A DNA stretch of 64,000 bases from Candidatus Heimdallarchaeota archaeon (GCA_011364965.1 RDOB01000002.1:512001-576000), one strand, 5' to 3'. Counted from the first letter of the stretch, positions 17,804-40,584 are shown. The notes: generated by a model not told the origin, from the letters alone. A program made the numbers and translations.

Positions 17804-18070
17804 CTAGATTTTGGACATTGCTAACTTAATATCATCACCCTTAACGGTTTTTCGACCAGAATTATTAGTAATTTCAACCGCATATTTTGCGATTTTTCCA
17901 CCATGCTCTGTAATAATTTCGTTCAAGGCACTAACAGCATCTGCTGACACTCGAAATGCACCTGCATCACGAATGATACGTTCAACCCTCGCGCTAGCAA
18001 ATCCACCTGCTCCAGCCTTCGCAGGAGCCTTTTTTGCCGTTTCTTTTTTAGTAACTTTCTTTTTTGCCAT
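17804..18070 (-). CDS. Archaeal histone with Lys-rich N-terminal tail
   Basis: Histone fold ARVERIIRDAGAFRVSADAV...GRKTVKGDDIKLA preceded by MAKKKVTKKETAKKAPAKAGAGG. Confidence 0.95.
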   Translation of the reverse strand: MAKKKVTKKETAKKAPAKAGAGGFASARVERIIRDAGAFRVSADAVSALNEIITEHGGKIAKYAVEITNNSGRKTVKGDDIKLAMSKI

Positions 18071-33449: not shown

Positions 33450-34697
33450 ATGAAATTACTAATAGCAGGTGGAGCAAGGGGCATGGGATCTTATATTGTA
33501 AAAGATGCTGTTCAGAGGACTATTTGGACAGATATAACTATTGCTGATATAAATGAATCGCGATCAAAGAGACGGATTTCTGAATTAAATGATTCTAGGT
33601 TATCCTATACTAAAATTGATGCTTGTAATCACGAAGATATGGTAAAAATCATCCAAAAATTTGATGTGGTTTACTCTGCAATCGTTCCATTCTATATATT
33701 TGGACCAAAAGTTGCACGGGCATGTATTGAAGCAAAAGTTCCCCTCATCGATATCCGTGATGATTCTGGACCCACAATCGAAATATTAGAAATGAACGAA
33801 GATGCTAAAAAGGCTGGAATTCCCATTTTTTTGGGATTTGGGTGTAATCCTGGTCTAACCAATTTGATGGTTAAACATGCATATACTAGATTGGATAAAA
33901 ACTCTCCTATGACCTTTGATATATCATGAGCAGGAGGTGCAGCAGACTCGGAAGGTTTAGCAGTCATCATGCATGTTTTATACGCAATTACAGGGAATTT
34001 TCCTTCATATCAAAATGGTTTGTTCATTGACGTTCCTGCAGGAGAAGGAAATTTGAAAATCGATTTTCCTGCACCATTAGGTACTATTGGGGTGTTTGAT
34101 TGTGGGCATCCAGAGCCTGTAACAATCCCTAAGTTCCTTGATTCTAATGTTGAGAGAGTTACATTGAAGGGAGGATTGACACCAGATTGGAATAATAAAT
34201 TTGCTACTTCAATGAAGCAATTACACCTAACTCAAGGGAAAAATCGGAAAAAGATTCTTGCAAAACTTGTACATCTAACCGAGAAAATATTTGAAACAGG
34301 AGGGGTCGCTGCTTCCTCTGCTCGAGTTGATATATATGGCTTTAAGGATAATAAAAGAGTACATTGGGTTTATTGAACACCAAGTATTGTTATGGGAGAA
34401 TTAACTGGGTATCCTGCGTCCATTGCAGCACAGCTCTTCACTGAGGGAAAAATCCAAGGAGTAGGTATAATCCCTCCTGAATCATTACCTGAGGGAACAG
34501 CTAAATTATTTTTTGAGGAGTTAAAGAAGAGAAATATAGAGCTAATATTTGATGAAAAAGAACCTTTAGAGTGGTTCAAAAACCCAGTTCCCTATGTTCT
34601 TGGGTTTTTTTCGAATTATGGATTTATTATTTTGAAACTTATTGGATTATGCTCCATTTTTGTTATTATATATCAGCTTCTAGCAATTCTATTCTAA
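33450..34697 (+). pseudogene. Saccharopine dehydrogenase-family oxidoreductase interrupted by two in-frame TGA codons
   Basis: Three ORFs in one frame; TGA at 33927 and 34374; GGARGMG Rossmann motif, GHPEP, MGELTG. Confidence 0.8.
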
Positions 34698-37634: not shown

Positions 37635-37864
37635 AAACAATTCCTTGGATATATTCTTCGATAATAAAATAAATTGACTCTAAATTCGATTTCCGAGTTG
37701 AAAATGAAACTGATTCAAATACCTTGAATTCTCGAAAATCTCTCCATCGAACAATAGACTCCTTTACTCCATTCCCTCTTACGATGAGGGTAAATATACA
37801 GTCGAGTATTATTATTATTAAATATTCGGTCGAGTAGTAGCAACAATTTTGCGATTCAAAATGT

Positions 37865-37878
37865 AAAACCTTTTAAAC
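37865..37878 (+). promoter_or_regulatory. Putative BRE/TATA element for the histone-doublet transcript
   Basis: AAAACC-TTTTAAAC about 200 nt upstream of the ATG. Confidence 0.4.
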
Positions 37879-37895
37879 TGTCGAGAAAGAGATTC

Positions 37896-38043
37896 AACTA
37901 GACTTTCTAGTTCTAAATAGCGAACTGGAAGCTAACATCCTACATTCAATCCATTAACGTCCTAGCGTTTATATAATGGCTCCCACGGCCTTTAAAAGCG
38001 TTGCTATAAAGAAGGACGTTTAAAAAAAGTTAGAATTAGGAAA
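37896..38043 (+). ncRNA. Candidate structured 5' leader or sRNA upstream of the histone doublet
   Basis: Nested complementary segments 37904-37916/38030-38042 and AACGTCCT/AGGACGTT (37956-63/38013-20), inner TTTATA/TATAAA, plus alternative hairpins. Confidence 0.45.
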
Positions 38044-38077
38044 AAAAGTAAATTATAAGGAGAAAAGGTGAAAAATT

Positions 38078-38500
38078 ATGGGTACTTTTGCTAAAGCCCG
38101 AATTGAAGCTATTATGAAGTCGGCTGGCGCCGAAAGAATCTCTGCTAACGCAATATCTCGAATGGATGAACTTTGTGCCGAATTTGGTGAGAAAGCTGCG
38201 AAAACTGCAATCAACCTTGCCTCAACCGCAGGAAGGAAAACTGTTCAAGCAGATGATATTAAATTGGCTGTCTCCAAGATAGGAGACCCGAAATATTCTC
38301 CCACAAAAGGTAAAGCATTCGCAAAGGCTCGCGTGGAAAAAGTGATAAGAGAAGCTGGCGCTTCTCGGGTTTCTGCAGACGCTGTCGATTATTTAAACCA
38401 AAAAATCGAAGCTCAATGCTATACTCTTGCGAAATCAGCCATTGAGATAGCCCGTCATGCCAAACGCAAGACTATTAAAGACACTGACATAATTCCTTAA
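38078..38500 (+). CDS. Tandem (doublet) archaeal histone
   Basis: Two histone folds FAKARIE..GAERIS..GRKTVQADDIKLA and FAKARVE..GASRVS..HAKRKTIKDTDI; AGGTGA SD. Confidence 0.95.
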   Translation: MGTFAKARIEAIMKSAGAERISANAISRMDELCAEFGEKAAKTAINLASTAGRKTVQADDIKLAVSKIGDPKYSPTKGKAFAKARVEKVIREAGASRVSADAVDYLNQKIEAQCYTLAKSAIEIARHAKRKTIKDTDIIP

Positions 38501-38507
38501 GGAAAAC

Positions 38508-38555
38508 TGGATAACCTATTTGGTTAGACCATTTTTCTTTTCCTTCTCTTTTTTC
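38508..38555 (+). terminator. Hairpin (TAACC-TATTT-GGTTA) plus T-rich tract after the histone doublet
   Basis: Read directly. Confidence 0.5.
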
Positions 38556-38637
38556 TATAAGCTTTTTTTTAATCACCTCTCAATCAAATCTGTAAAAGAC
38601 ATTAATAGCTTTATGAAAACTAAATGATTGAAAGGCC

Positions 38638-40584
38638 TTGAAACTCCATTCGCTGGCTCAATTTTATACTCCAAGTTGGATCGCGAAATATATTGTTGAA
38701 AGCGCTATTAATACATATATTCGATCAAATCCGAAAATTGAGGAAATAAAGGCGCTTAAAATTTTAGATCCGTCCTGTGGAGAAGGTATATTTCTACATA
38801 CAGCACTAAAGTATTTGATTCAACAGATTTCGAATCACCCAGACAATAATTGGACTTCAAGCAAAATTTCACATCATATTCTAATAAATCAGCTCTATGG
38901 AATAGATATCGATCCATCACAGGTGGAAATATGCTGTAAAAACCTCAATTGCGAAAAATTTAACTTCAACTTGCGCAAATTCAATGCTCTTATCCCGCCT
39001 CCGAATTCAGTTCAACCTGTCCAAAATGCAATTCATGAGAAAGTTCGAAAAGAAATAAAAATTAAATTCATTAGACAATTTTATTCTGAAGAAGCTGACT
39101 CTGACTTTAATTCATTAATGAAATTGGAAAGTCAAATTTTTCGAGATGTGAGTAGAGATCATCAATTCGCTTTGAGTCTACCTGATAAGTCAATAGCAAT
39201 CCCTTGGAGAGTGGCATTTCCCGAATGTGAGGGAAAATTTGATATTATTATAGGAAATCCTCCTTGGGGAGGAGATTTAGTCCCCTCCCATCTACTGGAG
39301 AAATATATAGTTGGTAGTCATCAGGTGGATACTTGGTCGCTCTTCATTGAGCGATCTATGGAAGCTCTTAAGAATAATGGAATATTAGGATTTGTAATTC
39401 CTAATAGTTTATTGATGAATGAGAATTACATAAAAACGCGAGAATTAATATTAAAAAGCTCTCAAATTAAAGAAATAATTAATCTAGGTGATGCTATATT
39501 CCCTGGAATTACCCAACCCTGCATGATTATTATTCTAGAGAAATTAGAGGAAGTTACTAAAGGTAATATCAAGATTATTCCACATCTTGGATATGAATTA
39601 GTAAACCAAGTCCGTGATGAGAAAACCAATCTATCATCTATAAACTATAATTCTTGTTTACAAGAAAGATTCGAAGATAATTTAGATTATTCTTTTGATA
39701 TATTCAGTATTGGATATGACGATTTCCTGAAGGAAGTTGAAAGAGATGTTGAATCCACACAAAAACATTGTAAATATTTAGGTGACTTAGTTGAAAATGG
39801 AAGGGGGGTTGAAATTAATCGTAATGGTATTATTATAATCTGTTCACAATGTGGATGGTGGAATCCCCCCTTTTCTCAACGAAATCTAAATTCCAAAGCT
39901 TGTGTGAATCCTAATTGTAAAGGGATAATTTTTCAGGTAGATAAATCTATTAATATTGTTTCAGATGAGAAAGTTACTTCTCAATCTAAACCAATTATTT
40001 CAGGATATCAGGTGTCAAGATATTATATTAGAGGACATAGGTTCATTAATACGAACGGAAAGGGGATTAATTTTAAATCTGAATCTCTTTACCAAGGTAA
40101 AAAAATACTTTTACGTAAAACTGGTTTTGGATTTAATGCTGCAATTGATTATGATAATCGTTTTACAACTCAAGTTGTTTACATTTTTAAACTGAAGAGA
40201 AGCGCCAATATATCCTTAGAATACATTCTGGGCTTGTTAAATTCCAATGTCATTCATACCTATTATTATTCGAAGTACGCTGACCTTAACCGTCGTGAAT
40301 TTCCTCATTTTACCCAAGGAAAAGTATTGAAACTCCCTATTAAAATCCCTGAATCTACATTAGAAAAAAGTATCGTCTTAAATATTGAACACAGAGTTAA
40401 AACCATCACAGACTTGTATAAATTGCAAAATGACTTAAAAGAAGAGAATCTTTCAATACTCATAAAATTGAAGCAGCTAGATAAGGAAATTCACGATTTA
40501 GTGTTTGATTTGTATGATATTAACGAAAAATACAGAGATTTTGTGTTTCAAAATTTTCATATTTCGGAAAAACATAAGGGATAG
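38638..40584 (+). CDS. N6-adenine DNA methyltransferase (Eco57I/TaqI-like, gamma class) with C-terminal TRD
   Basis: QFYTP, ILDPSCGEG, YGIDID, IIGNPPWG, KILLRKTG, YILGLLNS. Confidence 0.9.
   Translation: MKLHSLAQFYTPSWIAKYIVESAINTYIRSNPKIEEIKALKILDPSCGEGIFLHTALKYLIQQISNHPDNNWTSSKISHHILINQLYGIDIDPSQVEICCKNLNCEKFNFNLRKFNALIPPPNSVQPVQNAIHEKVRKEIKIKFIRQFYSEEADSDFNSLMKLESQIFRDVSRDHQFALSLPDKSIAIPWRVAFPECEGKFDIIIGNPPWGGDLVPSHLLEKYIVGSHQVDTWSLFIERSMEALKNNGILGFVIPNSLLMNENYIKTRELILKSSQIKEIINLGDAIFPGITQPCMIIILEKLEEVTKGNIKIIPHLGYELVNQVRDEKTNLSSINYNSCLQERFEDNLDYSFDIFSIGYDDFLKEVERDVESTQKHCKYLGDLVENGRGVEINRNGIIIICSQCGWWNPPFSQRNLNSKACVNPNCKGIIFQVDKSINIVSDEKVTSQSKPIISGYQVSRYYIRGHRFINTNGKGINFKSESLYQGKKILLRKTGFGFNAAIDYDNRFTTQVVYIFKLKRSANISLEYILGLLNSNVIHTYYYSKYADLNRREFPHFTQGKVLKLPIKIPESTLEKSIVLNIEHRVKTITDLYKLQNDLKEENLSILIKLKQLDKEIHDLVFDLYDINEKYRDFVFQNFHISEKHKG

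Follow-up and report, generated by a model that had tools for sequence, protein, structure and literature searches.

Histone doublets have been reported in the Hodarchaeales and are absent from the Lokiarchaeia. They have a high pI, and nothing is known of them functionally (Hocher and Warnecke 2024, PMC10919886; Genome Biol Evol 16:evae029). In large surveys, archaeal doublets are described as acidic (median pI 4.7) and as confined to the Halobacteria and Methanopyrus, and the family described here is untreated (PMC13260811). The cultured Hodarchaeales archaeon Ca. Margulisarchaeum peptidiphilum HC1 has six histones that fall into the classes HMpA, HMpB and HMpC, and the word doublet is never used in its description (10.64898/2026.07.02.735847).

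The best solved relative of each fold of the present doublet is HHoB (PDB 9QV5/9QV6/9QV7), the tail-less histone of Hodarchaeales LC_3. HHoB is a 68-aa singlet whose symmetric homodimers retain an intact stacking surface and two intact junction faces. In its cryo-EM study (10.1101/2025.05.24.653377), the dimer-dimer residues are Y44, E47, I48, H51, R54, D61 and K68, with L64 and Q67 added in the closed state, and the stacking residues are Q16, K29, E32, K39, K43, E47, R50, K63 and Q67. That study also includes the triple mutant K29A/E32A/D36A, which is taken here as aimed at the stacking interface. It also states that HHoB can form an open fibre via a minimal junction, names Tyr44 as key to the open state, and suggests that other paralogues may cap fibres.

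Two further groups of histones resemble one or the other fold. In the capstone histones of the Methanobacteriales, loss of the His at position 49 is a marker, an acidic or hydrophobic residue takes its place, and the loss is proposed to stop oligomer extension (Stevens et al. 2020, PMC7776873); an unstable dimer-dimer interface, in simulation or experiment, is a further trait of that group. In the alpha3-truncated histones, of the face-to-face and bacterial dimer types, helix 3 has 3-4 residues and helix 2 is shorter by 4-5 (Schwab et al. 2024, PMC11390915).

The doublet described here is encoded in a window of 64,000 nucleotides from a Candidatus Heimdallarchaeota genome (GCA_011364965.1, RDOB01000002.1:512001-576000). 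It belongs to the same family as the Hodarchaeales doublets of PMC10919886, with which it shares tandem folds, a Hodarchaeales genome and a high pI, and there is no difference in kind. The family is thus already published, which the initial annotation of the window missed. The additions over PMC10919886 are the complementary decay of the two junction faces, the truncation of helix 3, the restriction to one genus-level group, the RNA evidence and the synteny, which is conserved. What is new in the asymmetry at residue level is modest, and no description of the complementary decay was found in the literature searched, most subscription journals lying outside that search. The features of the locus, and the tailed histone gene of the same window, are as follows.

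37987-37999, plus strand: promoter-like BRE/TATA element (GGCCTTTAAAAGC) with a TATA-like TTTAAAA at 37991-37997; a putative promoter.
38018-38077, plus strand: probable 5' untranslated leader, beginning at the start of an RNA contig, with a Shine-Dalgarno-like AAGGAGAAAAGGTGA (38058-38072).
38078-38500, plus strand: coding sequence of the histone doublet, 140 aa, with the stop codon at 38498-38500; the sole long ORF there.
38078-38281, plus strand: fold 1 (residues 1-68), a complete histone fold with a degenerate four-helix-bundle face on helix 2.
38282-38317, plus strand: linker (residues 69-80, GDPKYSPTKGKA), 12 residues, basic, with a conserved G.PK.SPT.(P)K core.
38318-38497, plus strand: fold 2 (residues 81-140), with helices 1 and 2 of full length and a helix 3 of one turn.
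38532-38570, plus strand: T-rich tract TTTTTCTTTT..TCTTTTTTCT..GCTTTTTTTT in the gap between the doublet and methyltransferase genes; a likely archaeal terminator.
17804-18070, minus strand: tailed histone, 88 aa, Lys-rich, with a FASARVE start and Asn-Asn at the usual Arg-His of the four-helix-bundle face.

Positions 38078-38500 are a real and conserved gene of a Hodarchaeales (Asgard) archaeon, and its product joins two histone folds in one chain. The protein has two independent matches to PF00808 (CBFD_NFYB_HMF), one at residues 5-65 (52.7 bits, E 5e-14) and one at residues 83-138 (47.6 bits, E 2e-12), against a Pfam cut-off of 21.4 bits. These matches, with the linker at residues 69-80 between them, confirm the two joined folds that had been read from the sequence at the outset. 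The pI is 9.66, and fold 1, fold 2 and the linker are each basic separately, unlike the acidic doublets of Methanopyrus and the Halobacteria. In 21 aligned orthologues, G69, P75 and K77 of the linker are invariant and P71, K72, S74 and T76 are nearly invariant. The linker of the window genome is 2 residues shorter than in the 142-aa orthologues.

The AlphaFold2 model, built with 22 relatives, has a mean pLDDT of 93.9, and the lowest values are in the linker (81 for the block 71-80). In the DSSP assignment of this model, the helices of fold 1 span residues 6-15, 23-50 and 58-68, and those of fold 2 span 83-92 and 100-127, followed by a single turn at 135-137. The closest solved structure is Methanopyrus HMk (TM 0.82, rmsd 2.5); the next matches are single-chain H2A-H2B constructs and Melbournevirus doublets. 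On these matches, the doublet chain is therefore a folded-back intramolecular histone pseudo-dimer. HMk (PDB 1F1E) likewise carries two folds on one chain as a pseudo-dimer, but it is 28% identical to the doublet, is reported as acidic and has a longer linker. The claim of a fused, asymmetric pseudo-heterodimer of Asgard origin is borne out by the modelled intramolecular dimer, by the assignment of the organism to the Hodarchaeales and by the conservation of the asymmetry described below.

The eukaryotic H2A-H2B pair and the giant-virus doublets are analogies only: in these pairs the bundle His is on one partner, and the viral versions are single-chain. The doublet has no tails or extensions and no class-specific similarity to eukaryotic or viral histones. 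Weak H3/H4 matches are present for fold 2 (E 6e-4 to 8e-3) and none for fold 1. The HAKRKT motif of fold 2, which H4 shares, is found in unrelated archaeal singlets as well.

The element GGCCTTTAAAAGC aligns with AAAAnCTTTTAAA, which stands about 80 nt before the ATG in the orthologues and is the one block conserved upstream of their genes. Immediately 5' of the ATG, GAAAAGGTGAAAA is conserved in all orthologues, and oligo-T tracts lie 3' of the stop codon in all orthologous loci. Four contigs of low depth, from the RNA libraries of two metatranscriptome runs of one study, map to 38018-38486 (the ORF plus about 60 nt of leader). One of them (X20 record 3) covers 38018-38211 and starts 24 nt downstream of the TATA-like element. 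The doublet gene is probably expressed, and the contigs are compatible with a monocistronic mRNA, without proving one. No RNA contig lies on the flanks at 37700-38017 and 38487-38900, where missing contig cover does not equal absence of transcription. With the RNA contig beginning at 38018, and with only the TATA-like block and the ribosome-binding region conserved in the orthologues, most of the stretch 37896-38043 probably lies upstream of the transcript.

The gene that follows (38638-40584, plus strand) encodes a 648-aa Eco57I-type N6-adenine methyltransferase with a TaqI_C specificity domain, and there is no nuclease or restriction partner nearby. In 13 of 13 orthologous loci the methyltransferase lies 3' of the doublet in the same orientation, even though their synonymous divergence is saturated. 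The other conserved neighbours are a P-type ATPase (12 of 13 loci) and an ECF-type permease (9 of 13). A coupling of doublet and methyltransferase, or an operon of the two, was considered and rejected: the two genes are separated by the T-tract terminator, and conservation as a neighbour extends to the unrelated ATPase and ECF-type genes. The locus is read here as a conserved block and not an operon. At 33450-34697 (plus strand), three successive ORFs of 159, 135 and 101 aa carry N- and C-terminal saccharopine-dehydrogenase domains. These ORFs correspond to one 412-aa gene in an orthologous region (L031), and the frame breaks come from a pseudogene or an assembly error.

Interface residues were tabulated for 21 orthologues and 32 canonical singlets, with the register taken from the alignment to HHoB (fold 1 is numbered as HHoB minus 1, fold 2 as HHoB plus 76). 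In both folds, the DNA-contact residues (HMfB R10, R19, K53 and T54; HHoB R9, R21 and R54-K55-T56) and the L1 Gly are invariant across the 21 orthologues. These residues are held in common with HHoB, as is the FAxARVE start. The start reads FAKARIE in fold 1, FAKARVE in fold 2 and FASARVE in the tailed histone. The initial annotation correctly described this start as shared by the three folds but called it atypical; it is unusual only beside HMfB and is the norm in the Hodarchaeales, including HHoB (FANARVE). All 32 singlets classed as canonical carry a FAxAR(V/I)E start, but the start was itself a sorting criterion.

The junction face of fold 1 is replaced and variable. This fold reads ...LASTAGRKT, with Thr50 at the place of HMfB His49 and HHoB His51. 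In the window copy, Thr43, Asn46, Leu47 and Thr50 replace Tyr, Glu, Ile and His. Across the 21 orthologues, the positions of HHoB Y44, E47, I48 and H51 are occupied by T/S/N/G, N/D/A, F/L/A and A/T/S, respectively. The bundle-His position is Ala in nine orthologues, Thr in seven and Ser in five, and never His; the preceding residue varies too. Among the dimer-dimer residues, R53, D60, a hydrophobic residue at 63 and K67 are kept, and the stacking residues are mostly kept (R28, E31, E35, K42 and K62).

Fold 2 reads ...ARHAKRKT (His127) and has the C-terminal end KDTDIIP-stop. In the 21 orthologues, the pattern ARHAKRKT.KDTDI(M/I)P-stop is nearly invariant, and the positions of HHoB E47, I48, R50, H51, R54 and D61 are invariant or conservatively E/D. 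The dimer-dimer residues kept are E/D123, I124, R126, H127, R130 and D137. A Ser occupies the Y44 position, the chain stops where L64 would be, and the equivalents of Q67 and K68 are absent. The stacking positions K29, E32, D36 and K39 have become Y, K, A and Y, and K63, Q67 and K68 are changed or absent; the set is replaced by Y105, K108, A112, Y115 and M139. In helix 2 of this fold, Tyr105, Lys108, Ala112, Cys114 and Tyr115 are newly conserved. Cys114 is at the site of the mid-helix Gly of the singlets, and fold 1 retains the Gly there.

Neither fold of the doublet has an intact dimer-dimer interface. Compared with HHoB, both folds are without Y44; fold 1 has also lost H51, and fold 2 has lost L64, Q67 and K68. 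Helix 3 of fold 1 (58-68) has the length of about ten residues, and that of fold 2 (135-137) does not. The early description of a first fold with a full helix 3 and no tetramer His (STAGRKT, Thr50) and of a second fold with the His (RHAKRKT, His127) and a truncated helix 3 ending in DTDIIP is therefore accurate. This asymmetry is conserved and stable across saturated divergence. Fold 1 and the capstones both lack the His at position 49; the capstones are singlets with Glu or a hydrophobic residue there, whereas the doublet has the change on one of two fused folds, to Thr, Ser or Ala. Fold 2 is like the alpha3-truncated family in its three-residue helix 3 and in a weak match to Bd0055/HBb (E 6e-4). 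It is unlike that family in its helix 2, which has 28 residues as in fold 1, and it belongs to the nucleosomal Hodarchaeales group by sequence and in the tree.

Close relatives of the doublet form about 35 clusters of 141-148 aa with 70-85% identity, and their sources name them as histones of Candidatus Hodarchaeales or Hodarchaeota. The named genomes with a full-length copy are Hodarchaeota or Heimdallarchaeota MAGs, including B3_Heim and the closed chromosome CP070695. Of the 22 genomes in one Hodarchaeales genus-level group (the window genome counted), 17 have the full-length gene as a single copy, and all eleven genomes of this group that are estimated to be at least 90% complete carry it. 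The doublet is absent from five genomes of the group with an estimated completeness of 70-86%, two of which are single contigs, and from both genomes of a second Hodarchaeales family. In a scan of 400 genomes from 85 genera, no doublet is present at E 1e-18 or better in the 378 Asgard genomes outside the group. In a library of 1.8 billion representatives, the family consists of one cluster and one outlier, P0039.

Among 15 distinct orthologous coding sequences, the overall dN/dS is about 0.04 and the synonymous sites are saturated (pS 0.74), so the fusion is old. The pN of fold 2 is half that of fold 1 (0.078 vs 0.149). Since this difference is present despite the saturated synonymous sites, the surface of fold 2 is constrained.

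In the maximum-likelihood tree of histone folds (60 rows and 65 columns, which give little power), the FAxARVE-type Hodarchaeales singlets, the doublet halves, the P0039 halves and six FA.AR-type singlets form one clade (95/90). The C-terminal halves of the doublet form a clade (100/98), and the N-terminal halves form a weaker one (92/10). Halobacterial-type and other doublets fall outside the Hodarchaeales histone clade. In a search of the PDB, each fold matches HHoB best (E 2e-16; for HMk, 1e-8 to 1e-10). The part of HMk to which they align is in both cases its C-terminal fold, so the Hodarchaeales and HMk fusions appear to be independent. Fold 1 is 48% identical to the canonical singlet of its own genome and 54% identical to the tailed histone; fold 2 is 60% and 53% identical to these, and the two folds are 40% identical to each other. 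A sister relation of the two folds, as in a tandem duplication, is neither shown nor rejected (p-AU 0.39 on 65 columns).

On our reading of these results, the two folds were fused within the Hodarchaeales histone radiation, independently of the known doublets, at the little power that 65 columns give. That the doublet was acquired horizontally from the doublet lineage of Methanopyrus, Halobacteria or DPANN, all of them non-Asgard, is extremely improbable. The HMk C-terminal half does float inside the large Hodarchaeales histone clade, as a long branch, and an AU test leaves a single clade of all doublet halves formally unrejected (p-AU 0.069 on 65 columns). However, that constraint makes the tree 31 log-likelihood units worse, and the Hodarchaeales FAxARVE signature is common to both folds. 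The identities to the singlets of the same genome (48-60%) stand against 23-35% to HMk and 23-42% to the halo-type doublet, and the HHoB matches and the shared HMk alignment of both folds point the same way. An origin by transfer from the Methanopyrus or haloarchaeal doublets is thus unlikely. The placement of the separate folds among Asgard histones mostly holds: both lie in the Hodarchaeales singlet clade, with an AU result that is only borderline.

Besides the doublet, the window genome has three singlet-type histone genes and a weak fifth fold, and canonical singlets with intact interfaces are present beside the doublet in the same genome. An ORF of 128 aa (L006, G000:C11:605218-605304, minus strand) has a weak histone-fold match of 22 bits, and its fold is seemingly interrupted. 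In three related Hodarchaeales genomes, a conserved pair of singlet histone genes lies about 0.5 kb apart (G010:C1:745777-746672, G018:C6:161268-162084 and G015:C9:12250-13061).

The initial annotation tied the doublet to the tailed histone as one specialised system. This part is not upheld: the genes are 20 kb apart, the two are not joined in the tree, and their identities are unremarkable. Five genomes were read for the tailed histone, and all five carry the doublet. The tailed histone lacks the His in two of them (the window genome and G002) and has Gly-His at the bundle position in the other three (G010, G015 and G018). The spacing, the tree and the five genomes give no evidence of a dedicated two-gene system.

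The outlier P0039 is a 150-aa doublet on an unplaced 3-kb metagenome contig (L080, 797-1249, plus strand) and is 46% identical to the window doublet. The identity between its halves is 57%, and neither half lacks the His or a full helix 3. The linker shares a G..SP..K pattern with the window doublet. Fold-wise identities between the two doublets show no preference for N-terminal with N-terminal or C-terminal with C-terminal folds, and fold-by-fold orthology is neither rejected nor supported by AU tests (p 0.31 and 0.25). P0039 is either a less derived (basal) relative or an independent fusion, and its two complete folds may represent the state before the asymmetry arose. The 188-aa protein that adjoins it has no match in 83 genomes of the class. 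In two metagenome doublets from other genomes (P0053 and P0054), the halves are nearly identical and are very recent internal duplications; histone doublets therefore keep arising independently.

The reading preferred here, drawn from sequence only and with a probability of roughly 0.38, is that the doublet is a polar DNA-wrapping unit that joins canonical dimers by fold 2 and weakens extension at fold 1. To judge from its conserved residues, the doublet very likely binds DNA as a whole unit. Like the dimers of canonical archaeal histones, this single-chain dimer would bind and bend about 30 bp of DNA, and its two ends would be hard-wired as different. The core that fold 2 keeps (Glu/Asp123, Ile124, His127, Arg130 and Asp137) would let this end dock onto a canonical HHoB-type dimer, where both His-Asp pairs would be possible. 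The fold-1 end, having lost the His and three other helix-2 contacts, would offer half a junction only, and extension beyond it would be weakened. Missing from fold 2, too, are the portion of helix 3 and the charged residues on which gyre-to-gyre stacking depends in HHoB. Docking at fold 2, the weak fold 1 and the loss of stacking would together make a one-sided end piece or a weak joint. Such an end piece would limit or loosen the hypernucleosomes of the singlet histones of the same cell, and the fusion is what would make the cap one-sided. This reading matches the capstone idea (PMC7776873) and the paralogue-cap suggestion in the HHoB study (10.1101/2025.05.24.653377).

Several results are congruent with a polar end piece. 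The protein has a pI of 9.66, and neither its DNA contacts nor its L1 Gly vary in either fold; the interface is replaced and variable in fold 1 and invariant or conservative in fold 2; and fold 2, with its stacking residues changed, has half the non-synonymous rate of fold 1. The position 49 His loss is the capstone marker (PMC7776873), with Ala there in 9 of 21 orthologues. Canonical singlet partners with intact interfaces are encoded in the same genome, and the gene is independent, with its own conserved promoter block and terminator and with RNA contigs on the ORF. Other results are less congruent. The Thr of the window genome (or Ser) at the His position differs from the acidic or hydrophobic residue of the capstones, and fold 1 retains Asp60, Leu63 and Lys67, so a half-junction with a canonical dimer is still possible there. 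The junction of fold 2 is trimmed too (the Leu64, Gln67 and Lys68 equivalents are missing), and a strong end against a weak end may therefore oversimplify. Decay lies at the helix-2 end in fold 1 and at the helix-3 end in fold 2, the two elements that would meet in a head-to-tail junction, and this pattern fits a head-to-tail self-polymer equally well.

That polymer is the strongest rival, although itself somewhat unlikely. Every junction would be between fold 2 and fold 1, only half of the two-fold symmetric contact network would be kept, and the result would be a polar, loosely joined fibre of the open type without stacking. The four-helix bundle packs helix 2 of one partner against helix 3 of its counterpart. 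The half-junction that this arrangement would use is conserved (H127 and D60 are invariant, position 123 is E/D, and K67 is present in 19 of 21 orthologues), and the reciprocal half is decayed on both sides (Y44, E47 and H51 in fold 1; L64, Q67 and K68 in fold 2). The decayed elements sit at opposite ends of the molecule, so they would be in contact only across a head-to-tail junction. HHoB itself is able to form an open fibre by a minimal junction, but the Tyr44 named as key to that state is replaced by Ser in fold 2 and by Thr/Ser in fold 1. Only two evolutionary events are involved, so the co-decay may be coincidence. The prediction of a two-copy doublet complex (alignment A1) gives an ipSAE of 0.00 and speaks neither for nor against self-association.

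With both junction faces altered, the doublet could instead be a stand-alone DNA-bending or regulatory protein, non-oligomerising and of low abundance, which is an unlikely reading. The model for it is the haloarchaeal doublet HpyA, which is reportedly a low-abundance, site-directed architectural or transcription factor. The gene is single-copy, and the conserved fold-2 surface (Y105, K108, C114 and Y115) and the SPT-containing linker could bind another partner. Haloarchaeal histones have been reported as low-abundance regulators (10.64898/2026.07.02.735847). However, the doublets of the Halobacteria and Methanopyrus are acidic and this one is basic, it retains every sequence-independent DNA-contact residue, and the invariance of the fold-2 His/Asp pair would be difficult to account for if no dimer-dimer contact were made. 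The retained contacts and L1 Gly, the place of the doublet in the nucleosomal Hodarchaeales histone clade and most of the stacking residues of fold 1 (R28, E31, E35, K42 and K62) would also suit an ordinary hypernucleosome former, in which the fusion fixes stoichiometry only, the substitutions are tolerated and DNA is packed as by HHoB. This is quite improbable: helix 3 of fold 2 has three residues against about ten in nucleosomal histones (PMC11390915), and the five changed and two absent stacking positions of fold 2 and the loss of the fold-1 His are stable across saturated divergence. A long shot, ranked just below it, is a closed, non-growing particle of four folds and about 60 bp, in which two doublets would be joined by their fold-2 faces with the His-less fold-1 faces outward.

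The question touched by the doublet is how symmetric, endlessly polymerising archaeal histones gave rise to obligate one-sided heterodimers and a particle of fixed size. The Hodarchaeales are the archaeal order placed nearest to the eukaryotes. Natural fused folds with diverged ends are what the 'tethered intermediate' idea of Malik and Henikoff (see PMC10919886) calls for, and the window doublet provides them. It does not establish ancestry for any eukaryotic histone. As a small expressible protein, beside the solved singlet HHoB of the same order, the doublet allows a direct test of the hypothesis. It is an old fusion kept by strong purifying selection, and the unlike, complementary decay of its junction faces could illustrate how one-sidedness arose in histone pairs. 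If the fixed-size particle is true, a size-limited, nucleosome-like unit made of an obligate asymmetric pair would have evolved in this order, the archaeal one nearest to the eukaryotes, with an origin separate from those of H2A-H2B and H3-H4.
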